Of a DNA stretch of 64,000 nt, positions 2-51,824 are shown one piece after another (the first letter of the stretch is position 1; each line of letters starts with the position of its first letter). Position numbers and translations under genes: made by a program. The stretch is from Escherichia coli O157:H7 (GTDB lineage: Bacteria > Pseudomonadota > Gammaproteobacteria > Enterobacterales > Enterobacteriaceae): the NCBI RefSeq assembly GCF_013167455.1, contig NZ_CP038328.1. One strand, 5' to 3'. Under the pieces are notes generated by a model. The model searched no databases. It worked only from the letters and a program-made list of their open reading frames with translations, and had not been told where the DNA came from.

Positions 2-346
<345 letters not shown>

Positions 347-1777: not shown

Positions 1778-4207
1778 ATGACATTAACAAGACGTGAATT
1801 TATTAAACACAGCGGTATTGCCGCTGGAGCGCTGGTGGTGACATCGGCAGCACCGCTACCCGCATGGGCAGAAGAGAAGGGCGGTAAAATCCTCACCGCG
1901 GGACGTTGGGGAGCGATGAACGTAGAAGTGAAGGACGGCAAGATTGTTTCTTCGACAGGCGCGCTGGCGAAAACCATACCGAACTCCTTACAGTCTACGG
2001 CGGCGGATCAGGTACACACCACGGCGCGTATTCAGCATCCGATGGTGAGAAAAAGCTATCTCGACAATCCACTGCAACCGGCGAAAGGTCGTGGCGAAGA
2101 TACCTATGTACAGGTGAGCTGGGAACAGGCATTAAAACTGATTCATGAGCAACATGAGCGTATTCGTAAAGCTAACGGACCATCGGCCATTTTTGCCGGA
2201 TCTTACGGCTGGCGCTCTTCTGGCGTGTTGCATAAAGCGCAAACCTTACTGCAACGTTATATGAACCTGGCGGGCGGTTATTCCGGGCATAGCGGCGATT
2301 ATTCAACCGGGGCAGCACAGGTGATCATGCCGCATGTGGTCGGTTCTGTAGAGGTGTATGAACAGCAGACCTCCTGGCCGCTGATTCTGGAAAACAGCCA
2401 GGTTGTGGTGCTGTGGGGAATGAACCCGCTGAATACCTTAAAAATTGCCTGGAGCAGTACCGATGAGCAAGGGCTGGAATACTTCCATCAGCTGAAAAAA
2501 TCTGGCAAACCAGTGATTGCCATTGATCCTATCCGCTCTGAAACCATCGAGTTCTTTGGCTATAATGCCACCTGGATCGCGCCGAATATGGGCACCGACG
2601 TGGCACTGATGTTAGGGATTGCGCATACCCTGATGACACAAGGCAAACACGATAAAGTGTTCCTTGAAAAATACACCACCGGGTATCCGCAGTTTGAAGA
2701 GTATCTGACAGGTAAGAGCGATAATACTCCGAAGAGCGCGGCCTGGACGGCGGAAATTACTGGCGTACCGGAAGCGCAGATAGTCAAACTCGCTGAACTG
2801 ATGGCGGCGAATCGCACAATGCTGATGGCAGGCTGGGGAATTCAGCGCCAGCAATATGGTGAACAGAAACACTGGATGCTGGTGACGCTGGCGGCGATGT
2901 TAGGGCAGATTGGTACACCGGGCGGCGGTTTTGGTTTCTCTTATCATTACTCCAACGGTGGCAACCCGACGCGTGTTGGCGGCGTGCTGCCGGAAATGTC
3001 TGCGGCGATTGCCGGACAGGCCAGCGAGGCCGCTGATGATGGCGGAATGACGGCGATTCCTGTTGCCCGTATCGTCGATGCGCTGGAAAATCCTGGCGGC
3101 AAATATCAGCATAACGGTAAAGAACAAACGTATCCGAATATCAAAATGATCTGGTGGGCGGGTGGCGGTAACTTTACCCATCACCAGGATACTAATCGTC
3201 TGATCAAAGCATGGCAGAAACCGGAGATGATCGTCGTTTCTGAATGCTACTGGACCGCAGCTGCTAAACATGCAGATATCGTATTACCGATCACCACATC
3301 GTTTGAGCGCAATGACTTGACGATGACCGGTGATTACAGCAACCAGCATATTGTACCGATGAAGCAGGCTGTCGCTCCGCAATTTGAAGCGCGAAACGAT
3401 TTTGACGTGTTTGCCGAACTTGCGGAATTACTGAAACCAGGCGGAAAAGAGATCTATACCGAAGGTAAAGATGAAATGGCGTGGCTGAAATTTTTCTATG
3501 ATGCCGCTCAGAAAGGTGCCCGTGCGCAACGCGTCACTATGCCAATGTTTAATGCCTTCTGGCAGCAAAATAAACTGATCGAAATGCGCCGCAGCGAGAA
3601 GAACGAACAGTACGTTCGTTATGGTGATTTCCGCGCCGATCCGGTGAAAAATGCGCTGGGTACGCCAAGCGGCAAAATTGAGATTTACTCCAAAACGCTG
3701 GAAAAATTTGGCTATAAGGATTGCCCGGCACACCCAACCTGGCTTGCGCCTGATGAGTGGAAAGGTACCGCCGACGAGAAGCAGTTACAGCTTCTGACCG
3801 CACATCCGGCACACCGTTTACACAGTCAGCTTAACTATGCGCAACTGCGTAAAAAATATGCGGTTGCCGATCGTGAACCAATCACTATTCACACCGAAGA
3901 TGCTGCTCGCTTTGGTATTGCGAATGGCGATCTGGTCCGTGTCTGGAACAAACGTGGTCAGATTTTGACAGGCGCTGTGGTGACTGACGGGATCAAAAAA
4001 GGCGTGGTATGCGTGCATGAAGGTGCATGGCCAGATCTGGAAAATGGCTTGTGTAAAAACGGCAGTGCGAACGTGTTAACGGCGGATATCCCCAGCTCGC
4101 AGCTGGCAAATGCCTGTGCCGGTAACTCTGCGCTGGTGTATATCGAAAAATATACGGGTAACGCACCGAAGTTAACGGCGTTTGATCAGCCAGCTGTTCA
4201 GGCATAA
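1778..4207 (+). CDS. torZ: Trimethylamine N-oxide / S-oxide reductase TorZ (BisZ), molybdopterin enzyme with Tat signal
   Basis: Twin-arginine motif TRREFIK at the N-terminus; about 809 aa from ATG at 1778 (ORF track starts 18 nt earlier at 1760); 7-nt gap after torY. Confidence 0.9.
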
Positions 4208-4254
4208 GACGTGAAAAGCGCCCGGAAACGGGCGCTGAGGTTATGCAAACATAA

Positions 4255-4360
4255 AGCTGCCTGATGCGCTATGCTTATCAGGCCTACATAGTCCCTGCAA
4301 TATATTGAATTAGCAAGGTTTTGTAGGCTGGATAAGGCGTTCACGCCGCATCCGGCAGTA
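4255..4360. repeat. REP (repetitive extragenic palindrome) pair between convergent torZ and cmoB
   Basis: gcctgatgcg...cttatcaggcctac and taggctggataaggcgttcacgccgcatccggca are classic REP sequences. Confidence 0.7.
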
Positions 4361-4371
4361 ATACCAGACCT

Positions 4372-6519
<2,148 letters not shown>

Positions 6520-6571
6520 ACAAACTCCCTTTAAAATGGCCGATGGCACCTGTCTATGATAGGTGGCAAAT

Positions 6572-7390
6572 TCAGAAAAGAGAAGATTGCTGTGGAATAG
6601 CCGGAACTGCTCCGATCTCTGGAAGCGTTTTACGTAAGTCTTCCCACAGGGTATGTACCAGTTCCGGGGCCTGGGCAATATCTGGCGTATGTAAAAAAAG
6701 ATAAGGCGTAGTGGTCTGATGCCACTGCGCTAATTTTTGTAACCAGACCTGAAATAATTCCCGGTTTTGCGTCATATCATCACTACCGATAAAACGGATC
6801 AGCGGATTTGTCGCCGTCAGTACAGCATGTACCGGAACTTTAGGTTTTTTTCGTTGAGCGTCGCGAATAGCTTCACTGTGTGGACGTGCTGCATGAACCG
6901 GGCGGCTGTCTAAAATCACCTGATTAACGCCGCGCTGATGTAAACCGCGATTAAGCGTTTGTTCCTCTTCCCCTTTGGCGAAAAACTGTGGATGGCGGAC
7001 TTCCACACCATAATTAAATTCGCCAGGGAGAGAATCGAGAAAATGCCAAAGCGCAGGCAGCTCCCGTGGGCCGAATGTGGCAGGCAGTTGCAGCCAGTAT
7101 TGCCCAATGCGCGGAGCCAACGGTGACATGCGGGTCAAAAATTCAGTCACTAAATCATCGCAATGTCGTAATGCTGCCTGATGCGAAATGGTCGCCGGAA
7201 ACTTAAAACAGAAGCGGAAGTCATCTGTGGTCTGTTCACGCCAGCGCAGGACAACCTCGGGTTTCGGCAGGGCGTAAAGCGTGGTGTTGCCCTCCACGCA
7301 GTTAAAGTGACGGGCATACTCTTCAAGGCTGGTGATCCCCAACCGCACCCATTTAGGATGCGACCATTGCGGTAGACCGATGTAAATCAT
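6572..7390 (-). CDS. yecE: DUF72 family protein YecE
   Basis: 272-aa ORF; start overlaps yecD stop by 4 nt. Confidence 0.8.
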
Positions 7391-7953
7391 AACGCGTTGA
7401 GGATCTCTTCCACGCTACGCACACGGGCGATGCGCGGGTAGATATGGTTGATACTGTTATTGTGCTGCTCGGCGCTAGCGGCACTACAGGCATCTTCGGC
7501 AATCACCAGATTAAAGCCAAGTTCCCAGGCATTGCGGGCGGTGGATTCAACTCCGATATTGGTCGAGATCCCACATAACACTATTGTATCGATACCTCGG
7601 CGGCGTAATTGCAACTCCAGATCCGTACCGTAAAACGCACCCCACTGACGTTTGATTATTTCGATATCACTGTCAGTTGCACCTAATGCAGCTGGATGTT
7701 GCCACCAGTTTTCGGGCAACACTTTAGCGGGGGAAGGGGCATCAACCGGCTGTTTTAATGCTTCGGCGTAATCGGCAGACCAGCCAACGCGCACCAGAAA
7801 CACGGGCTGACCGCTGGCGCGAAATTTCGCCGCCAGCTTCCCGGCGCGATTAACTACCTCATCGGCAGTATGTGGACCACCGGCAAAAGGTAAGATGCCT
7901 TCTTGTAAATCGATCACCACCAGCGCAGTGGTTTTAGCATTAAGTTCAAGCAT
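7387..7953 (-). CDS. yecD: Isochorismatase-family hydrolase YecD
   Basis: 188 aa from internal ATG (MLELNAK...); isochorismatase-like residues. Confidence 0.8.
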
Positions 7954-13425: not shown

Positions 13426-14439
<1,014 letters not shown>

Positions 14440-14440
14440 G

Positions 14441-14675
14441 TCGGATTGGTCGCTCGCACCGCATCCGACATTGGCAGTGTGCCTGATGCGACGCTATTCG
14501 CGTCTTATCAGGCATATACCAGAGATAGCGAACCGTAGGTCGGAAAAGGCGCTCGCGCCGCATCCGACATTGGCAGTGTGCCTGATGCGACGCTGTTCGC
14601 GTCTTACCAGGCCTACCAGAGATAGCGAACCGTAGGTCGGATAAGGCGCTCGCGCCGCATCCGACAAATGTGTTC
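14441..14675. repeat. BIME-like cluster: tandem 98-bp units each carrying REP palindromes
   Basis: catccgacattggcagtgtgcctgatgcgacgct recurs at 14463 and 14561 (period 98 bp), with a partial third copy near 14655. Confidence 0.8.
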
Positions 14676-35592: not shown

Positions 35593-35677
35593 CATTTAAG
35601 CTGATGACCACCGCGCTTTTTATTGACCATTTTGCACGCAAACTGGAAAACCTGGCGTCGTCATCTATTCTTAAAGG

Positions 35678-35780
35678 GCAAGGCAACTAAGCCTGCATTA
35701 ATGCCAACTTTTAGCGCACGGCTCTCTCCCAAGAGCCATTTCCCTGGACCGAATACAGGAATCGTGTTCGGTCTCTTTTT
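35678..35780 (+). ncRNA. sdsR: SdsR (RyeB) sigma-S-dependent sRNA
   Basis: Sequence gcaaggcaactaagcctgcattaatgcc...gaccgaatacaggaatcgtgttcggtctcttttt recognised; sigma-S-like -10 CTATTCT at 35665..35671; terminal hairpin GACCGAA/TTCGGTC plus U-run. Confidence 0.8.
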
Positions 35781-35914
35781 ATCTGTTAAAAGCCAGAAGC
35801 ATTTCCTTCGCTGACTTTATAGTCAACCATAACACACACTCTACTGTCTGAGTCCAGCGTTTTTTAACATTCTTGTTAAGATTATGTGATCTTTAGCGCG
35901 GGAGGAAAATATTG

Positions 35915-36571
35915 ATGAAACAGCCTGCGCCCGTTTATCAGAGAATTGCGGGTCATCAATGGCGACATATCTGGCTTTCTGGCGATATACACGGTTGTCT
36001 TGAGCAGTTGCGCCGCAAATTATGGCATTGTCGTTTTGATCCGTGGCGAGATTTACTTATCTCAGTGGGAGACGTTATCGATCGTGGGCCGCAAAGTTTA
36101 CGTTGTCTGCAGTTACTGGAACAACATTGGGTTCGTGCGGTAAGAGGCAATCATGAACAGATGGCGATGGATGCGCTGGCATCCCAGCAGATGTCTTTGT
36201 GGTTGATGAATGGCGGCGACTGGTTTATTGCGCTGGCAGATAATCAACAGAAACAAGCGAAAACGGCGCTGGAAAAATGTCAGCATTTGCCCTTTATTCT
36301 TGAAGTACACAGCCGCACCGGCAAACATGTTATTGCTCATGCCGATTATCCAGATGATGTTTATGAATGGCAAAAGGACGTTGATTTGCATCAGGTCTTG
36401 TGGAGCCGCTCGCGATTAAGTGAACGCCAAAAAGGGCAGGGAATTACAGGTGCTGATCATTTCTGGTTTGGTCATACACCGTTGCGCCATCGCGTGGATA
36501 TTGGCAACCTGCATTATATTGATACCGGCGCTGTCTTTGGGGGCGAACTGACTTTCGTGCAATTGCAATAA
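35915..36571 (+). CDS. pphA: Serine/threonine protein phosphatase 1
   Basis: 218 aa; calcineurin-like metallophosphatase motifs GDIHG, GDVIDRG, GNHE. Confidence 0.85.
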   Translation: MKQPAPVYQRIAGHQWRHIWLSGDIHGCLEQLRRKLWHCRFDPWRDLLISVGDVIDRGPQSLRCLQLLEQHWVRAVRGNHEQMAMDALASQQMSLWLMNGGDWFIALADNQQKQAKTALEKCQHLPFILEVHSRTGKHVIAHADYPDDVYEWQKDVDLHQVLWSRSRLSERQKGQGITGADHFWFGHTPLRHRVDIGNLHYIDTGAVFGGELTFVQLQ

Positions 36572-36763
36572 TTAAAAATCACCATACTCCTGTGCTGGTC
36601 GCCAGAAACCATCTATAAAATCCTCAATCGGAAAACAACCGCCATGACGGATCCGTTGATCGCTCATAGAATAAAGACACTGCTGTTCCGTGTTGTAGAC
36701 ATCCACAACAATATCTTCACAACCGCCATCCAGGTAGCAAACAAAAAGTACCAGCGCGAACAT
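36572..36763 (-). CDS. yebW: Uncharacterised protein YebW
   Basis: 63 aa from the internal ATG; stop abuts the pphA stop. Confidence 0.65.
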   Translation of the reverse strand: MFALVLFVCYLDGGCEDIVVDVYNTEQQCLYSMSDQRIRHGGCFPIEDFIDGFWRPAQEYGDF

Positions 36764-36867
36764 TTCATCCCCGAAGTGTGGTGCCGTACCGTTAAGTTTA
36801 GGAGAGATTTTACAACGGGGGAATAACCAGGACAAATAACCCGCCATGCCGACGGGTTCTTTTTGGA

Positions 36868-37104
36868 TCAGGCAAGACGCATAATCCAGGCATCAGATTG
36901 TTGATCGTAACGGGTACGGTAAAGGACAGAGTGTTCGCCATTTAGCAGGGCAGGGATACTGGTTTCAGCATCCCAGGCATCCAGTTGCATACATAAATCG
37001 GGGTCTGATTTACAAGGAATGGTTAACGTTCGATCACCCGGCGATTCACCGTGTAATTCGCCGTCGTCGATTTCAAAAGCGCCTATGCGCACACTGGTTT
37101 TCAT
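36868..37104 (-). CDS. yebV: Uncharacterised protein YebV
   Basis: 78 aa from the internal ATG (MKTSVRIGAFEIDDGELHGE). Confidence 0.7.
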   Translation of the reverse strand: MKTSVRIGAFEIDDGELHGESPGDRTLTIPCKSDPDLCMQLDAWDAETSIPALLNGEHSVLYRTRYDQQSDAWIMRLA

Positions 37105-37221
37105 CTTCGTGCTCTCCATTTAGCTGCCGGTTGTGGTACGACCAGTCCGATCGCACCATTTTTCAGCCTAGTTGAGGCCGCCGAATGTGCCAGTCAAAAA
37201 GTGCGCTTTTTTTGTGCGCTG

Positions 37222-38661
37222 TCATGCGTTACTGGTAAAAAGTTTCCCGTCCCGCACCAGTTCACGCGGGTAGCTGTTTTTCAGTCGCGAACCAATCCGT
37301 TTGGCTAAACCAATCGGCTGATGCTGGAAAGTAACCAACACGTCATCCGCCACTGGCGCGGCTTGCGGGTAAACATCGCGCCCGCGATACCACTCCTCCG
37401 CTTCTTGCGGTGTCAGTTCAAAAGCGTTCTCGTTGTCGGGGGAGGCAAGGGCAATAACCGCTTCATGCTGCCAGCGATAACCTTTGTTGTGCGTTTCGGC
37501 AAGTTTAATCCCCAGGCGAGAAAATCGGACTTTACCGATCAGGGCTTCAATGCCTACCGGAAACAACCACACTTCTTTGTCGCGCTGCCAGAGTCGCAGG
37601 TTTCCATCCCAGTTTAAGCCAACACTTGCAGCCGCCTGACGAATTTGTGCGGCTTCGCGATCTTTCACCGGGCTGAACGGGAAATTGCCCACTTTGTATT
37701 TTGGGGTGGGTAAGGCGGGAATGGCCTGAGTTTTACGCAGACGAGCAACGAAGAAGCCTTCGCAGTCGTAAATTTGTGGGAAAACATGCAAAAAGCCTTC
37801 TTCGGTCAGCGCTTTGTTTGCACCAGGGAAGAGATCGCCAAGTGGTAAAAACTCTACTGCGTCGGGGTAAGTCTCTTTAAGCCACAGGCAAACGGATTCG
37901 TTTTCTTCCCGGTTTAAGGTACAGGTCGAGTAAACCAGTGTACCGCCAGAGCGTAATGCATGAAAGGCACTGTCGATCAGTTCCCGTTGGGTAGCTGCGA
38001 TTTCCTGATTGCTTTCTGGTGACCAATTTTTTAGCGCATCGGGATCTTTACGCACCACGCCTTCGCCGGAGCAGGGAGCGTCCAGCAAAATGGCATCGAA
38101 CATTTCTGGCAATGCCGCACCAAACACGCGGCCATCAAAATGTGTGAGCGCAACATTACTGATACCACAGCGGCTGATATTGGCATGTAACACTTTTACC
38201 CGACTGGCGGAAAACTCATTGGCAAGGATTGCCCCTTCGTTATTCATCCGCGCGGCAATTTGCGTCGTTTTGGAGCCTGGCGCAGCAGCGACATCCATCA
38301 CCCGCTGTGGTGCATTACCGTCAGCAAACAAGGCGGCGACGGGCAACATTGAACTGGCTTCCTGAATATAAAACAGGCCACTTAAATGCTCGGCGGTACT
38401 ACCCAATGGCAATGCATCTTCATCGTCGCGTTCAATCCAGAAACCTTCTTCACACCACGGAATTGGCGTAAGCGTCCAGCCATAAGGAGCGGTTAATCGC
38501 AGGAAATCAGCAACGGAGGTTTTCAGCGTATTAACGCGAATGCTGCGGCGCAACGGGCGCTGACAGGCGGCAAGAAAATCATCAAAAGAGAGCGTCGAAG
38601 GCATTGCTTCGCGCATTTGCGTCAGAAAGGCGTCCGGGAAATAAACGGTGTGTTGGGCCAC
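37222..38661 (-). CDS. rsmF: 16S rRNA m5C1407 methyltransferase RsmF (YebU)
   Basis: 479 aa from GTG 38661; SAM-binding motif and catalytic Cys region. Confidence 0.85.
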
Positions 38662-38741
38662 GAGCATATACCACTGGCAAAAAAAACAGGCGCGCAGTTT
38701 AGCATAAACGCTCCGGCGCAGGCACGCCGGAGCAGTGGGCA

Positions 38742-41375
38742 TTATTTGGGAAGCGCAGTTCCCCATTCACGCCACTCTTTCGGTTCACTTTCCTGCAACA
38801 GGAAGTGCTTGCCTTCCTGGGCTTTCGGTGCCAGTGGCGTACCCGGAGGCGTGGCGAAGGCGATGCCGCCACGGATAAACTGGTTAAAGGTGCCGGTTTT
38901 CACTACGCCGCCCGTCAGACCAAAGTCCAGACTGTAACCCGATGCCAACCAGAAGACGGAATTGTTACGCACCAGGTGTTGATAGCGTTTACTGATGCGC
39001 ATCGCAATCATCACGCGATCTGACAATGTCCCCAGCGTCATTCCGGTAACCGTACCGACTTCCAGACCACGGAACAGCACAGGCGTACCGATGCCTAACG
39101 AACAGGCTTCCGGCGCTTCAACAATAATGCTTAAACCATCCAGGTAACGCGAATCAGTAATGGTGGCCTCTTGTAATTCAAAGTCGCGACGAGGATTGCC
39201 ACGGCCTGGTTCGACGTTGATATACGGCTGGAGGATAGTATCAAGATGCTCAACGCCAGCTGCCGAAATTTGCGGTGTGACCACTGAGAAGCGCGTACCA
39301 CCGCGAGCAAAGGTCTGGACATATTCCGGATAGAGCACCGCCTTTGCCTGTACTTCATTGCGCGCGGTAATCAGATCCAGCGTCTGGATTTGCCCGATAT
39401 CAATACCGAGATAGCGAATTGGCATCCCGACCGCCAGTTTTCCGGCATCGAAAGCATGAAGCGTAATCTGCCCGCCAACCGCACGGGCCGCTGTTTCGGA
39501 AGCATACAGAATACGCTTATCGCCTTTACGCTGACTGGCGCTGGCACCGCTGAGGTTATCGAAGCTAATGGCTCCCTTTAATGCTCTGGAGAGTGGGGAT
39601 GCCTGTACGGTCAGGCCACTACCATTCAGCTGAACTTTCGCCCCGCCTTCTGCCCAGAACACGCTATTGTTGGTCAGAAGGTTGCGATACTCCGGCTTAA
39701 TATGCAGATCGATATCAAACGCGTTAGCTCGCGGACGCACGGTAATAACTTCACCAACTTCAAATTTACGGTACAGCACTACCGATCCTGCCTGCACATC
39801 CGGCAGCGTCTCTGCACTCAAACTCACGGTTGTGGTGGGTAAATCGCTAAGGCTGTTCTCCAGCGCTTTTTCCAGATTGGCATACAGTGGATAGCTGGCT
39901 TTCATCTCACCTTTATCGCCCGGCAGAATACGTATCCCGCCATTGATCCATTCTGAGGCGCTGGCACCGAGAAACTCAACGCCATCCAGCCCCACCTTCA
40001 CATCGACACGGCTGTTGACGACAAATTTGCTATCGCCTTTTACCAGTTCGCGATGCTGAGGCTCAATGGCGACGGTAAAGGTAACGCCTTTGCTGGTGAG
40101 TTTACGATCAATAACCTGGCCTACCTGCACGCCGTGAAGAATGAGCGGCTGACCAGCATCAATACCGTAACTTTCCGGTGCTGTCAGGGTCAGTGTCAGA
40201 ACATCAGGTTCATGCAGCAGTGCTTTTTCGCCTGGCACAACAACGAACTCTTTGCGTGGCTCGCCATCGCCAGGCACCAACTCAAAGGTTTTTCCGGTCA
40301 GCAGGGCGCTGAGATTGGCATCGCTAAGGGATAATTTCGGGTTGCGTAATTCGATGCGGGTATTTTCCCGTAACAGCGTAACGACGCTGGGATCAACGGT
40401 CATTTCTCCGGTGACTTTACCACCAGGATTTAAATCCAGTTTAGTCAGCTGTCCGACTTCCAGCCCCTGATACATTAACGGCGTCGAGTCGGCGGTTAAT
40501 CCGGCCCCACTCGGCAGTTCCAGTTTTATTATTACGCCACGCTGGCTGTGGGCCAGATCTTCATACAGACCAAAGGTATCTTCCGCCTCGGCAGGTTTCG
40601 ACTCTTCTGGTGAATCGAAGGCAATCGCACCGTTAACCAGTGCCGCCAGACTTTCCAGTTTCACCTTCGCGCCACTGATACTGACGTTGGCATCAACGCC
40701 TGAAACGTTCCAGAAACGGCTACCTTTTTTCACCAGGTCGGTAAAACGCCGCTCGATCAGGACATCAATCACCACGCCTTGTTTATTGGGATTGATGGCA
40801 TAGTCGTAGACTTTTCCCACCGGGATCTTGCGGAAATAGACCAATGAACCGCTGTTCAGCGAACCGAGATCGGGAGCTTGCAGGTGGATCATCAGATCGC
40901 CGTTATCCAGCCGATACTTCGGTTGGGTATCGAGCGCGACAAAGTGATCCTGCTCTTTACCTTTACCTGGCATCATGCCGATATAGTTACCACCGACGAG
41001 GGCGTCCAGCCCGGAGACACCTGCCAACGATGCTTTTGGCGTCACCAGCCAGAACTGAGTCTCTTCGCGCAGCGCATCTTTCATATCGGACTTGATGCTG
41101 ACCTTGACTTCAATCTTACGAAGATCGTCGCTGAGGCTGATATCCTGCACTGTTCCGACTTCAACGCCCTGATAACGAACAGGCGTACGGCCCGGGACAA
41201 TACCATCCGCCGACATAAAGTCGATGGTGACGGTATTACCCCGGTCCTGATAACTGTCCCAAATCAGCCAACCGGCAATCATTAGCGCGATGAACGGCAG
41301 CAGCCAGAAAGGTGAGATACGGCGTTTATTTTTAATCTGCGCTTCAGTCGTCGAAGCGGGCGTTTCCTGACTCAT
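38742..41375 (-). CDS. letB: Lipophilic envelope-spanning tunnel protein LetB (YebT), multi-MCE-domain
   Basis: 877 aa from the internal ATG ([10 protein letters not shown]); N-terminal TM helix then repeated MCE-like modules. Confidence 0.85.
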
Positions 41376-42627
41376 GTGCATCCCAAAGTAAGCGGCTGTC
41401 CAGCCATTCCACAGCAAGAATAGTCAAAATTACCGCTGCGCCGAAATAAAACGCAGCCGGTCCCATAGTAAAAGCGAGGATCTGATCGCGATTAATCAGC
41501 GACATGGTTAAAGATATGACAAACAGGTCGAGCATCGACCAGCGACCAATCCAGGTCACCATCCGCAGTAACAGAATGCGTGTGCGTAAACCTTGCTGGC
41601 ATTTAAAATGAATGCTCAACAGTAAAGTGAACATGACGATCACTTTAGTAAACGGTACCAGAATACTGGCGATAAACACGATTCCTGCAACCGCAATGTT
41701 GCTACTTGCCAGCGACATAATTCCGGAAAGAATTGTATCTTCCTGCCGTCCTCCGTTCAGATAAATGATAGAAATAGGCAACAGGTTGGCAGGTAACAAT
41801 AAAACGATTGACGCTAACAGCGCCGCCCAGCATTTTTGCAGACTATGACGGCGACGCAGGCGTAGCGGAATATGACAACGCGGGCAGCGACCACGCTGAT
41901 CAGGATAGCCGGTAAAATGGCACCCAAGACAGACACGAAGTTTCTCGTCCCTACGCGTAGCGGGGCGCTGCGGATAAAATCGCTCCCACAGCTCCTCGAC
42001 ATTAAGATGTGACAACGTCACCGTCGTTAAAATCACCAACGCCACAAAAGAGAACAAGCCGACACCCGCCTGGATATGGGCATAATCCTGTACCTTTATA
42101 GAAGCAACGCCAATGCCGACCAGGTAGATATCGAGCATTACCCACTCTTTAAGTCGCTCAAGCATCAGCAGTACCGGGCGTAGATTCATTCCCAGTCGGT
42201 TACCAAACCATAAATAAGCTATGGAGGTCACCAGAATGAGCGGGGCACCAATAACGCAGAAAAAGACCATCGACCCCGTTATCGCATCGCCCTGTTTGGT
42301 CATTTGCCAGATGCCTTGCATAACGTTGGCGTCAATACGAATGCCTAACAGCCAGATATGCAACAGCGGTTCGCCCCAGGCAAACGGCATCAGCAACAGC
42401 ATGGTGAAGGCCATTGCCGCCAGGCGCGTTAGCGACCAGTCGCGCCCGTCACGAATTTTTGCCTGACAGCGCGGACAATAGGCACTTTGATGAGAATTTA
42501 TCTCGGGCAGGCTAAACAGCATGTCACATTGCGGGCAACGTTGGTAATCACCACGCGGCAGTTCCTCGCCGATTGCCCTCACTGTTATCTTTTTTGTCGG
42601 CGTAATTTGTGGTGTGTTAAGAGCCAT
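41344..42627 (-). CDS. letA: PqiA-family inner membrane protein LetA (YebS)
   Basis: 427 aa; two Cys4 clusters (CPQCDMLF...CPRCQ and CLGCHF...CPRCH); 3' end overlaps the letB start by 32 nt. Confidence 0.85.
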
Positions 42628-42756
42628 GACGTGCCAAATGTAATAAGAATTAACATTAATCTTAACCCATGATGGGAATGATCTTGAGCATTAACGCATT
42701 TAATGCTTATTTTAATAGGCTGGCAGTTCCAGGTAAGACAACCAAGTGATTATATA

Positions 42757-43254
42757 ATGAACAAAACAGAATTTTACGCGGATTTAAATCGCGACTTTAA
42801 CGCGCTGATGGCGGGAGAAACCAGTTTTCTGGCAACGCTTGCGAACACCAGTGCGTTGTTATATGAGCGTCTCACTGACGTAAACTGGGCAGGTTTTTAT
42901 TTGCTTGAGGACGATACACTGGTGCTCGGACCATTTCAGGGCAAAATTGCCTGTGTCCGGATACCCGTCGGGCGTGGCGTGTGCGGCACTGCGGTTGCCC
43001 GCAATCAAGTGCAGCGTATCGAGGATGTTCATGCGTTTGACGGGCATATTGCCTGTGATGCGGCGAGTAATTCTGAAATTGTTCTGCCGCTGGTGGTGAA
43101 AAATCAGATTATTGGTGTTCTCGACATCGATAGTACCGTCTTCGGTCGCTTTACAGACGAGGACGAGCAAGGCTTACGTCAGCTTGTGGCACAGCTTGAA
43201 AAAGTGCTTGCAACGACGGATTACAAAAAATTCTTTGCGAGCGTCGCAGGATAA
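42757..43254 (+). CDS. msrC: Free methionine-(R)-sulfoxide reductase (GAF domain)
   Basis: 165 aa from the internal ATG (MNKTEFYADL). Confidence 0.85.
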   Translation: MNKTEFYADLNRDFNALMAGETSFLATLANTSALLYERLTDVNWAGFYLLEDDTLVLGPFQGKIACVRIPVGRGVCGTAVARNQVQRIEDVHAFDGHIACDAASNSEIVLPLVVKNQIIGVLDIDSTVFGRFTDEDEQGLRQLVAQLEKVLATTDYKKFFASVAG

Positions 43255-43350
43255 TCAACGGATAACGTAGCATTTACTGATAGCGTCATTATAATGACGC
43301 CTGTTCATGCCTGCGCTTGTTGGCTACGTCCGTTGTAATCAGGAAATTTC

Positions 43351-44049
43351 ATGGAAAATCAACCTAAGTTGAATAGCAGTAAAGAAGTAATCGCGTTTCT
43401 GGCCGAACGTTTTCCCCACTGTTTCAGTGCGGAAGGTGAAGCGCGTCCGCTGAAAATCGGTATTTTTCAGGATTTGGTCGATCGTGTTGCCGGGGAAATG
43501 AACCTGAGCAAAACGCAATTACGATCCGCTTTACGTCTCTACACTTCGAGCTGGCGTTACCTTTACGGTGTTAAACCCGGCGCAACGCGTGTCGATCTTG
43601 ACGGCAACCCATGCGGTGAGCTGGACGAGCAACATGTAGAGCATGCTCGCAAGCAGCTTGAAGAAGCGAAAGCGCGTGTTCAGGCACAGCGTGCTGAACA
43701 GCAAGCGAAAAAACGCGAAGCTGCCGCAGCTGCTGGTGAGAAAGAAGACGCACCGCGTCGCGAACGCAAGCCACGTCCGACCACGCCACGCCGCAAAGAA
43801 GGCGCTGAACGTAAACCTCGTGCGCAAAAGCCGGTAGAGAAAGCGCCAAAAACAGCAAAAGCACCTCGCGAAGAACAGCACACCCCAGTTTCTGACATTT
43901 CAGCTCTGACTGTCGGACAAGCCCTGAAGGTGAAAGCGGGTCAAAACGCGATGGATGCCACCGTATTAGAAATCACCAAAGACGGCGTCCGCGTCCAGCT
44001 GAATTCGGGTATGTCTTTGATTGTGCGCGCAGAACACCTGGTGTTCTGA
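43351..44049 (+). CDS. proQ: RNA chaperone ProQ
   Basis: 232 aa; FinO-like N-domain, Lys/Arg/Ala-rich linker, C-terminal Tudor-like domain. Confidence 0.9.
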
Positions 44050-44068
44050 AACGGAGGCCGGGCCAGGC

Positions 44069-46117
44069 ATGAACATGTTTTTTAGGCTTACCGCGTTAGC
44101 TGGCCTGCTTGCAATAGCAGGCCAGACCTTCGCTGTAGAAGATATCACGCGTGCTGATCAAATTCCGGTATTAAAGGAAGAGACGCAGCATGCGACGGTG
44201 AGTGAGCGCGTAACGTCGCGCTTCACCCGTTCTCATTATCGCCAGTTCGACCTCGATCAGGCATTTTCGGCCAAAATCTTTGACCGCTACCTGAATCTGC
44301 TCGATTACAGCCACAACGTGCTGCTGGCAAGCGATGTTGAACAGTTCGCGAAAAAGAAAACCGAGTTAGGCGATGAACTGCGTTCAGGCAAACTCGACGT
44401 TTTCTACGATCTCTACAATCTGGCGCAAAAGCGTCGTTTTGAACGTTACCAATACGCTTTGTCGGTACTGGAAAAGCCGATGGATTTCACCGGCAACGAC
44501 ACTTATAACCTTGACCGCAGCAAAGCGCCCTGGCCGAAAAACGAGGCTGAGTTGAACGCGCTGTGGGACAGTAAAGTCAAATTCGACGAGTTAAGCCTGA
44601 AGCTGGCAGGAAAAACGGATAAAGAAATTCGTGAAACCCTGACTCGCCGCTACAAATTTGCCATTCGTCGTCTGGCGCAAACCAACAGCGAAGATGTTTT
44701 CTCGCTGGCAATGACGGCGTTTGCGCGTGAAATCGACCCGCATACCAACTATCTTTCCCCGCGTAATACCGAACAGTTCAACACTGAAATGAGTTTGTCG
44801 CTGGAAGGTATTGGCGCAGTGCTGCAAATGGATGATGACTACACCGTTATCAATTCGATGGTGGCAGGTGGTCCGGCAGCGAAGAGTAAAGCTATCAGCG
44901 TTGGTGACAAAATTGTCGGTGTTGGTCAAACAGGCAAGCCGATGGTTGACGTGATTGGCTGGCGTCTTGATGATGTGGTTGCCTTAATTAAAGGGCCGAA
45001 GGGCAGTAAAGTTCGTCTGGAAATTTTACCTGCTGGTAAAGGGACCAAGACCCGCACTGTAACATTGACCCGTGAACGTATTCGTCTCGAAGACCGCGCG
45101 GTTAAAATGTCGGTGAAGACCGTCGGTAAAGAGAAAGTCGGCGTGCTGGATATTCCTGGCTTCTATGTGGGTTTGACAGACGATGTCAAAGTGCAACTGC
45201 AGAAACTGGAAAAACAGAATGTCAGCAGTGTGATCATCGATCTGCGTAGCAATGGTGGTGGGGCGCTGACCGAAGCGGTATCGCTCTCAGGTCTGTTTAT
45301 TCCTGCGGGTCCTATTGTTCAGGTCCGTGATAACAACGGTAAAGTTCGTGAAGACAGCGATACCGACGGACAGGTTTTCTATAAAGGCCCGCTGGTGGTA
45401 CTGGTTGACCGCTTCAGTGCTTCGGCTTCAGAAATCTTTGCCGCGGCAATGCAGGATTACGGTCGTGCACTGGTTGTGGGTGAACCGACGTTTGGTAAAG
45501 GCACCGTTCAGCAATACCGTTCATTGAACCGTATTTACGATCAGATGTTACGTCCTGAATGGCCAGCGCTGGGTTCTGTGCAGTACACGATCCAGAAATT
45601 CTATCGCGTTAACGGCGGCAGTACGCAACGTAAAGGCGTAACGCCAGACATCATCATGCCGACGGGTAATGAAGAAACGGAAACGGGTGAGAAATTCGAA
45701 GATAACGCGCTGCCGTGGGATAGCATTGATGCCGCGACTTATGTGAAATCAGGCGATTTAACGGCCTTTGAACCGGAGCTACTGAAGGAACATAATGCGC
45801 GTATCGCGAAAGATCCTGAGTTCCAGAACATCATGAAGGATATCGCGCGCTTCAACGCTATGAAGGACAAGCGCAATATCGTTTCTCTGAATTACGCTGT
45901 GCGTGAGAAAGAGAATAATGAAGATGATGCGACGCGTTTGGCGCGTTTGAACGAACGCTTTAAACGCGAAGGTAAACCGGAGTTGAAGAAACTGGATGAT
46001 CTACCGAAAGATTACCAGGAGCCGGATCCTTATCTGGATGAGACGGTGAATATCGCACTCGATCTGGCGAAGCTTGAAAAAGCCAGACCCGCGGAACAAC
46101 CCGCACCCGTCAAGTAA
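44069..46117 (+). CDS. prc: Tail-specific protease Prc (Tsp)
   Basis: 682 aa from the internal ATG (MNMFFRLTALAGLLA signal peptide); PDZ + S41 peptidase. Confidence 0.9.
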   Translation: MNMFFRLTALAGLLAIAGQTFAVEDITRADQIPVLKEETQHATVSERVTSRFTRSHYRQFDLDQAFSAKIFDRYLNLLDYSHNVLLASDVEQFAKKKTELGDELRSGKLDVFYDLYNLAQKRRFERYQYALSVLEKPMDFTGNDTYNLDRSKAPWPKNEAELNALWDSKVKFDELSLKLAGKTDKEIRETLTRRYKFAIRRLAQTNSEDVFSLAMTAFAREIDPHTNYLSPRNTEQFNTEMSLSLEGIGAVLQMDDDYTVINSMVAGGPAAKSKAISVGDKIVGVGQTGKPMVDVIGWRLDDVVALIKGPKGSKVRLEILPAGKGTKTRTVTLTRERIRLEDRAVKMSVKTVGKEKVGVLDIPGFYVGLTDDVKVQLQKLEKQNVSSVIIDLRSNGGGALTEAVSLSGLFIPAGPIVQVRDNNGKVREDSDTDGQVFYKGPLVVLVDRFSASASEIFAAAMQDYGRALVVGEPTFGKGTVQQYRSLNRIYDQMLRPEWPALGSVQYTIQKFYRVNGGSTQRKGVTPDIIMPTGNEETETGEKFEDNALPWDSIDAATYVKSGDLTAFEPELLKEHNARIAKDPEFQNIMKDIARFNAMKDKRNIVSLNYAVREKENNEDDATRLARLNERFKREGKPELKKLDDLPKDYQEPDPYLDETVNIALDLAKLEKARPAEQPAPVK

Positions 46118-50668: not shown

Positions 50669-51293
50669 AATTCATCCTGATTATACGCACTGTCATGGTG
50701 CAACTGCTTCAAATTAAAACTCTGGTCTGACTTCAAATAATTATCATATTATTTATTTGCGTAACGGGATATCAGAAAAAGATATTTACCCCATTAATTT
50801 ATTAGGATGTTTACATCGGATTTGTGATTAAGCGTGGTATTATTTATTAGCGAAACGTTTCTCTCTTGATTTTTTTTGCTTATTCATCAATTTTTCTTAT
50901 TTTAAATTTCCAATTCCTTTGGGATTGACTTCTCTTTGGGGTGATTGAGAGCCGTTAACTGCCTGTTTTATGAGAAAAAGTGATATAACTTTTTATTCAT
51001 TGCATAGCAGAAAATGTGATATTGCACGCACTATGTAATAACTTCTCCCACTGACCTGGAACAACTGAACTTATTGAACTATGTTAGAAACTACGTCAGT
51101 TTAAGTATCTGCGGAACTGACAAGGTTAAGCACAATGATATATCGGCGCGTATTCCGTTGCATAAGTGTGCAAAAAAAGTGGAAGACGTATCGAGATTTG
51201 TGCGTCTGATCGAGACATGTTTAAAAATGGCTTGCCATAATTAACGTTGTATGTGATAACAGATTTCGGGTTAAACGAGGTACAGTTCTGTTT

Positions 51294-51437
51294 ATGTGTG
51301 GCATTTTCAGTAAAGAAGTCCTGAGTAAACACGTTGACGTTGAATACCGCTTCTCTGCCGAGCCTTATATTGGTGCCTCATGCAGTAATGTGTCAGTTTT
51401 ATCTATGTTATGCCTGCGGGCGAAGAAAACAATCTAA
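51294..51437 (+). CDS. yobF: YobF, 47-aa small protein in the cspC leader; below the ORF-track size cutoff
   Basis: ATG 51294 to TAA 51435..51437; translation [47 protein letters not shown]; 12 nt before cspC. Confidence 0.8.
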
Positions 51438-51449
51438 GGAATTTTTCAA

Positions 51450-51659
51450 ATGGCAAAGATTAAAGGTCAGGTTAAGTGGTTCAACGAGTCTAAAGGTTTT
51501 GGCTTCATTACTCCTGCTGATGGCAGCAAAGACGTGTTCGTACACTTCTCCGCTATCCAGGGTAATGGCTTCAAAACTCTGGCTGAAGGTCAGAACGTTG
51601 AGTTCGAAATTCAGGACGGCCAGAAAGGTCCGGCAGCTGTTAACGTAACAGCTATCTGA
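51450..51659 (+). CDS. cspC: Cold-shock-domain protein CspC
   Basis: 69 aa; RNP1 motif KGFGFI. Confidence 0.95.
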
Positions 51660-51703
51660 TCGAATCCACTGATCTGAAGTGTGAATACGCTTCAATCTCG
51701 CTA

Positions 51704-51732
51704 TAAAGCCTCGTCGAATGCGAGGCTTTTTA
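51704..51732 (+). terminator. Rho-independent terminator after cspC
   Basis: aaagcctcgtcgaatgcgaggcttttt. Confidence 0.75.
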
Positions 51733-51824
51733 CTATGCTTTATCTTCGCTCCTGGCGTTCGGATATTTGCCCGCCGCGTGATTCGCGTTACACTTGCGGC
51801 CTTTAGTATCCTGCCGGAGTTGTC

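Follow-up and report, generated by a model that had tools for sequence, protein, structure and literature searches.

In the Mla system, a single MCE ring works together with the ABC permease MlaE/MlaF, which is driven by ATP, and with MlaC as a soluble shuttle. A further system, LetAB, is of biological importance because it moves phospholipids and maintains the outer membrane of Gram-negative bacteria. For LetAB, work published in 2025/2026 combines a cryo-EM structure with deep mutational scanning and with a model in which phospholipid is loaded stepwise (PMC13017536). LetA was found to consist of two related "LetA modules", each formed by a cytoplasmic zinc ribbon and a four-helix transmembrane domain (Santarossa et al., Nature 2026, PMC13017536; bioRxiv 2025). 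The fold of this transmembrane domain is tetraspanin-like (PMC13017536), and LetA represents a transporter fold outside the known families. In the complex, which others established on the same protein that is described here, a single LetA lies beneath the seven MCE rings that six LetB chains build. A model of six steps, accompanied by lipid crosslinking, describes how phospholipid of the inner membrane is loaded into the LetB tunnel (PMC13017536).

Identity and context of the letA-letB locus

The DNA analysed in this study is a window of 64 kb (64,000 nucleotides). In this window we identify, with a probability of about 97%, the chromosomal letA-letB (yebS-yebT) operon of O157:H7-type E. coli. 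It encodes an already known phospholipid transport system of the Gram-negative envelope which belongs to the MCE family. In the open reading frame listing of positions 36500-45000, both genes are located on the minus strand in the region 38742..42627. An earlier note on this DNA had given exactly these coordinates for letA-letB, the strand being absent from it. As is usual in this family, letA is adjacent to and upstream of the MCE-protein gene letB on the same strand. The two genes and their overlap are as follows.

41344..42627, minus strand: letA (yebS) coding sequence, 427 aa, stop codon included (open reading frame; RefSeq yebS in a 100% identical genome; PDB 9n8w chain A; TIGR00155)
38742..41375, minus strand: letB (yebT) coding sequence, 877 aa, stop codon included (open reading frame; RefSeq; PDB 9n8w chain B)
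41344..41375, minus strand: 32 nt shared out of frame by the 3' end of letA and the 5' end of letB (open reading frames; same as RefSeq)

The complete window is the reverse complement of positions 1956919-2020918 of NZ_CP030767.1, to which it is collinear and 99.98% identical (5 mismatches, 1 gap). By megablast with the 3886 nt query, the letA-letB locus was found in 5424 of 5426 complete E. coli genomes; in O157:H7-type strains it is 100% identical and annotated as yebS/yebT. The matching genome locus in RefSeq (L001) carries yebS at 4001-5284 and yebT at 5253-7886. According to the RefSeq annotation, letA is preceded by the divergent gene msrC and, beyond it, by proQ-prc, and letB is followed by rsmF, yebV, yebW and pphA.

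Both gene products were compared with solved protein chains. LetA of the window is identical to chain A of PDB 9n8w (LetAB cryo-EM, 9n8w/9n8x) in 427 of 427 residues and LetB corresponds to chain B in 874 of 877, with S35G, S569N and G758C as the differences; the earlier LetB structures 6v0c-j, 6kz3/4 and 6vci match as well. Among the NCBIfam models, TIGR00155 (PqiA/YebS family), which has a cutoff of 260.35, gives LetA a score of 704.9 bits. The gene names letA-letB (yebS-yebT), which had been proposed before, are thus borne out by the RefSeq annotation, by NCBIfam and by the identity to solved structures.

The paraquat-inducible pqiA-pqiB genes are paralogues that share both Pfam families (PqiA, MlaD) and the order of the genes with letA-letB, and the NCBIfam equivalog models of PqiA and PqiB do match the two proteins (E=1.3e-62 and 8.6e-142). 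However, both scores remain below the cutoffs (212 versus 562 for the PqiA equivalog NF011683, 474 versus 525 for the PqiB equivalog), which marks the pair as the Let paralogue and not as Pqi. Moreover, LetB has 877 aa and seven MCE domains, the PqiB chain of known structure (5uvn, 453 residues) aligns with LetB over residues 45-275 only (E=3.3e-37), letB is followed by rsmF instead of a pqiC-like gene, and the chains which were deposited under the names YebS and YebT show complete or 99.7% identity to the two proteins. We rejected the pqiA-pqiB identity on account of the missed cutoffs, the count of MCE domains and the identity to the deposited chains, and its probability is next to nil. The identification as letA-letB stands on both counts, since LetA and LetB are nearly identical to the solved chains and the PqiA and MCE domains are present. 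Across domain scans, NCBIfam and the structure-chain comparison, no evidence against it was found.

Duplicated modules and zinc ribbons of LetA

The following features were assigned within LetA.

42433..42558, minus strand: N-terminal zinc ribbon, residues 24-65, with Cys31/34/51/54 (CPQC-x16-CPRC; Cys conservation; limits from PMC13017536)
41974..42432, minus strand: N-terminal membrane domain, residues 66-218 (Pfam PqiA PF04403 at 66-217, E=1.3e-38)
41845..41973, minus strand: C-terminal zinc ribbon, residues 219-261, with Cys233/236/248/251 (CLGC-x11-CPRC; Cys conservation; limits from PMC13017536)
41374..41844, minus strand: C-terminal membrane domain, residues 262-418 (Pfam PqiA at 263-418, E=8.4e-43)

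Two PqiA-type membrane domains thus stand in tandem in a single polypeptide, as is characteristic of the family. The hydropathy profile shows about 4+4 hydrophobic segments across the two halves, those of the N-terminal membrane domain being located at residues 64-89, 113-142, 159-180 and 182-211. A BLASTP comparison of residues 1-220 with residues 221-427 gave 29% identity over 175 aa (E=3e-16). Together with the two PqiA domains found by Pfam, this substantiates the internal duplication that the earlier note had suggested. The alignment of the halves begins at the second CxxC motif of either half, hence the duplicated unit includes the ribbon.

LetA contains 11 cysteines. Eight of them form the motifs CPQC (31-34), CPRC (51-54), CLGC (233-236) and CPRC (248-251), that is, two Cys4 clusters, one in each half, with motifs exactly as quoted previously; the others are Cys124, Cys266 and Cys343. 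Each membrane domain is preceded by a CXXC-Xn-CXXC motif with n=16 and n=11, respectively, in accordance with the family and with the published ribbon motif, for which n=11-18 is given (PMC13017536). When 1.84 billion representative proteins were scanned in full with HMMER, 2934 LetA relatives were obtained at E<=1e-3, and an alignment of 113 rows was built from LetA and 112 full-length homologues among the top 150 (23-49% identity). All eight ribbon cysteines are retained in 105 of the 113 sequences. Individual positions are kept in 108-112 rows, the N-terminal ribbon accounting for this whole range and the C-terminal ribbon for 110-111. Cys124, Cys266 and Cys343 are not conserved (13, 13 and 2 of 113 rows). 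Judged by this alignment, the cysteine clusters of LetA are not a product of chance. In three of the 113 sequences the C-terminal cluster is wholly or mostly lost, in line with the published statement that ZnR-C is missing from some homologues.

Apart from the ribbons, seven alignment columns are invariant (S321, P325, K328, G361, W363, D367 and F395). All of them belong to the C-terminal membrane domain and fall where the published "polar network" lies (PMC13017536).

The matches of the clusters to Pfam zinc-finger families are marginal, with zf-FPG_IleRS at E=0.01 for the N-terminal and Spt4 at E=2.9 for the C-terminal cluster. Consequently, the zinc-ribbon call rests on the cysteine conservation and on the published structure, and these two lines support the earlier proposal of one zinc-ribbon module per LetA half. 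Zinc binding itself was established by others on the K-12 protein, which is identical in sequence: about 2 Zn per LetA were determined by ICP-MS (PMC13017536). In the mutational data, the metal-binding cysteines are intolerant to exchange and C124, C266 and C343 are dispensable (PMC13017536).

A different role of the Cys4 clusters would be that of redox or iron-binding, rubredoxin-like sensors which regulate transport and are not purely structural zinc sites. The very strong conservation of the ribbon cysteines would agree with such a function, and iron binding is possible for Cys4 ribbons of this kind, whose metal specificity can depend on conditions (PMC13017536). Nevertheless, zinc was the sole enriched element among 80 in purified LetA, no ribbon residue other than the cysteines was sensitive to mutation, LetA kept its function when the zinc ribbons of PqiA were swapped in, and LetA without ZnR-C remained partially functional, with ZnR-C being absent from some homologues (PMC13017536). 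The loss of all or most of the C-terminal cluster in the three aligned sequences points in the same direction, so that a sensor function appears very unlikely. We therefore retain the reading of structural zinc ribbons.

LetB domains and the O157-lineage allele

The features of LetB are an anchor and seven MCE domains.

41250..41321, minus strand: single N-terminal transmembrane helix, residues ~19-42 (only hydrophobic segment in the hydropathy scan; KNKRR precedes)
40965..41243, minus strand: MCE domain 1, residues 45-137 (Pfam MlaD PF02470, E=4.7e-19)
40716..40889, minus strand: MCE domain 2, residues 163-220 (Pfam MlaD, E=6.9e-8)
40317..40538, minus strand: MCE domain 3, residues 280-353 (Pfam MlaD, E=9.2e-10)
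40011..40196, minus strand: MCE domain 4, residues 394-455 (Pfam MlaD, E=4.8e-7)
39609..39836, minus strand: MCE domain 5, residues 514-589 (Pfam MlaD, E=1.1e-4)
39204..39470, minus strand: MCE domain 6, residues 636-724 (Pfam MlaD, E=2.3e-12)
38952..39137, minus strand: MCE domain 7, residues 747-808, including the Cys758 codon (Pfam MlaD, E=1.4e-9)

LetB had been described as a protein of 877 aa with a single N-terminal transmembrane helix followed by repeated MCE-like domains. Both parts of this description agree with our results: hydropathy analysis shows one segment at residues 19-42 and none elsewhere, and the Pfam domain scan finds seven MlaD/MCE domains between residues 45 and 808. A lone N-terminal anchor and seven tandem PF02470 domains, all with E<=1.1e-4, are also what is expected from a LetB family member.

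The three substitutions of the O157-lineage LetB are distributed over the transmembrane helix (S35G), MCE5 (S569N) and MCE7 (G758C). Cys758, encoded by a TGT codon at 39102..39104, is the only cysteine in LetB. The exact 55-mer centred on this codon occurs in 294 of 5426 genomes and is a lineage marker; among the matches listed are O157:H7 or cattle and human isolates. With G758C, MCE ring 7, which lies closest to the outer membrane, would contain six periplasmic thiols. These could form disulfides between protomers or be redox-sensitive and in this way alter the gating of the distal tunnel in the O157:H7 pathotype, a sequence-based idea which we consider very improbable.

The letA/letB overlap and the start of letB

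The overlap of 32 nt mentioned in the earlier note is exact (41344..41375) and is annotated identically in RefSeq for yebS/yebT (L001). The annotated start codon of letB is the ATG at 41375 (MSQETPAS...), a second in-frame ATG is located 6 nt upstream (MHMSQ...), and the frame is open upstream to a TTG at 41417. In front of this letB ATG there is a weak Shine-Dalgarno-like element, GGGA, located 5 nt upstream of the codon. The minus-strand region 41340-41440, which spans the letA/letB junction, shows no unusual RNA structure (-26.5 kcal/mol, z=-0.12 versus shuffles).

Gene callers often choose the longest open reading frame, and with two in-frame ATGs only 6 nt apart the overlap might be regarded as an annotation artefact, the true LetB start being located downstream of the letA stop. 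The letA stop codon, however, coincides with LetB codons 10-11, the transmembrane helix begins at about residue 19, and there is no Met in LetB between residue 1 and the helix. A similar arrangement was observed in two orthologous loci (L004 and L006), where LetA has 50% and 44% identity and prc-proQ is located upstream in both cases: the sole in-frame start codon ahead of the LetB helix sits inside letA there as well. In addition, PDB 9n8w contains the full-length LetB chain with the same 877 residues from MSQETPAS onward. An artefact is thus extremely unlikely, and we continue with the annotated start inside letA.

In L004 and L006, letA and letB overlap by 56 and 38 nt. On the basis of these two distant orthologous loci, the overlap is a conserved habit of the operon, the length of which is not conserved. 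In the window, the overlap codes for LetA residues 418-427 and for LetB residues 1-11, which precede the transmembrane helix. Since LetA residues 419-427 have no cryo-EM density (PMC13017536) and LetB residues 1-11 lie in front of the helix, we infer that both ends are unstructured tails, which should tolerate dual coding.

The overlap places the initiation site of letB inside letA, so that the two genes are co-transcribed and probably coupled in translation as well, the latter being reasonably deduced from the overlap alone. The stoichiometry of one LetA to six LetB implies that letB is initiated independently or additionally, or else more efficiently. In the range 38400-43000, sigma-70-like promoters and terminators were found in numbers at or below shuffle expectation, and the sigma-70-like scan of the msrC-letA intergenic region gave no convincing match for a letA promoter. 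The only notable site in the scan of 38400-43000 is a G+C-rich hairpin directly after the letB stop codon.

Proposed mechanism

According to the gene structure combined with the published data, LetA is a pseudodimer in the inner membrane, the halves of which are two homologous LetA modules. In each module a cytoplasmic Cys4 zinc ribbon precedes a tetraspanin-like membrane domain of four helices. LetB contributes six chains with one N-terminal helix apiece as the anchor, and their seven MCE domains stack into seven hexameric rings and enclose a hydrophobic tunnel of ~225 A in length which spans the periplasm. The single LetA under ring 1 keeps this ring open and passes phospholipids of the inner membrane on to the tunnel. 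The role of the zinc ribbons is structural, as they stabilise the LetA fold and hold its two halves together.

The mechanism and substrate of the system had been regarded as still being worked out. This is no longer accurate with respect to the structure and the phospholipid-loading model, which are published, and remains valid for the energy source (passive or driven by the proton-motive force) and the direction of transport, both of which were left open by the authors (PMC13017536).

Comparison with known systems

Every element of the earlier interpretation was confirmed, yet letA-letB is already known and the same elements are already published (PMC13017536). As a discovery the locus carries little weight, as the operon, the duplication, the ribbons, the seven-ring tunnel and the loading mechanism have been described for proteins that are identical or 99.7% identical. 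The additions from our study are small: the cysteine conservation in 105 of 113 sequences, the recurrence of the overlap in two further loci and the substitutions in the O157 LetB.

The closest system is LetAB of E. coli K-12 (9n8w/9n8x). Its LetA is identical, including all 11 cysteines, and the overlap, the neighbouring genes and the seven MCE domains are the same; the sole difference consists in the three LetB substitutions of the O157 lineage. E. coli PqiABC is similar in combining a two-module PqiA-family protein, which carries two Cys4 ribbons, with a multi-MCE protein that spans the periplasm. However, in PqiB a long helical needle comes after three MCE domains, and the lipoprotein PqiC is its partner (PMC10897342), whereas the locus described here encodes seven MCE domains and no pqiC-like gene. 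With MlaFEDB, LetAB shares the MCE (MlaD, PF02470) fold, the principle of the hexameric ring and the traffic of phospholipids for outer-membrane integrity (PMC13017536). Unlike MlaFEDB, LetAB has no ABC component, and the fold of LetA is unrelated to that of known transporters (PMC13017536). Finally, split LetA homologues, as in Pseudomonas aeruginosa with two adjacent single-module genes, are built from the same module of ZnR and four helices. In the LetA of our window both modules are instead fused in one polypeptide of 427 aa, and E. coli LetA still works when it is split into two genes (PMC13017536).

Conservation and sequence variation in LetA and LetB

Family conservation in LetA is strongly asymmetric between its two modules. 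In the alignment of 113 sequences (LetA and 112 homologues at 23-49% identity) seven columns are invariant. The C-terminal module holds them all, whereas the N-terminal module has no invariant column. The segment concerned is:

41374..41844, (-): LetA residues 262-418, containing the seven invariant columns

This distribution fits the published functional asymmetry of LetA, in which a polar network and a periplasmic pocket are present only in TMD-C (PMC13017536).

LetB differs from the K-12 protein, as represented in the PDB (9n8w chain B), by three substitutions:

39102..39104, (-): G758C, in MCE ring 7
39669..39671, (-): S569N
41271..41273, (-): S35G, in the TM helix

The first of these creates the sole cysteine of LetB, Cys758. 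Of the 5426 complete E. coli genomes, 294 share an exact 55-mer that surrounds its codon, and these 294 apparently represent the O157:H7 lineage.

Small RNAs and RNA elements

Directly 3' of the letB stop codon, within the gap of 80 nt between letB and rsmF, a G+C-rich hairpin was detected:

38709..38734, (-): G+C-rich hairpin, 11 pairs, 8 of them G-C

Because its T-tail is poor (TTTATGCTAA), this structure may act as a weak terminator or attenuator, or as an mRNA-stabilising stem.

Elsewhere in the window, the following elements were observed:

37..344, (+): MicL sRNA, within cutC or at its end (Rfam RF02654, 373.7 bits, full length)
14434..14666: self-overlapping inverted repeat (about 136 nt, 91% identity), znuB-ruvB intergenic region
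35640..35784: known antisense sRNA pair SraC/RyeA (-) and SdsR/RyeB (+), between pphA and yebY
51274..51734, (+): Rfam 'cspA thermoregulator' match (136.9 bits), spanning the yobF-csp gene region

The znuB-ruvB repeat is REP/BIME-like and is overlapped by an Rfam match to naRNA4 (nucleoid-associated ncRNA, CssrE) at 14538-14613. This match reaches 61.5 bits, the gathering score being 59.5. The cold-shock gene beside yobF is named cspE in RefSeq, whereas in K-12 the gene at this chromosomal position is cspC; the RefSeq name is possibly an annotation quirk.

Partner arrangement of a LetA homologue

A LetA homologue of 419 aa (32% identity) is carried by a metagenomic contig (L007, 3458..5659), where the next gene is convergent and encodes a protein of 297 aa with one MlaD domain. 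In contrast to letA-letB, no co-directional multi-MCE gene follows this homologue; its partner arrangement is a different one.
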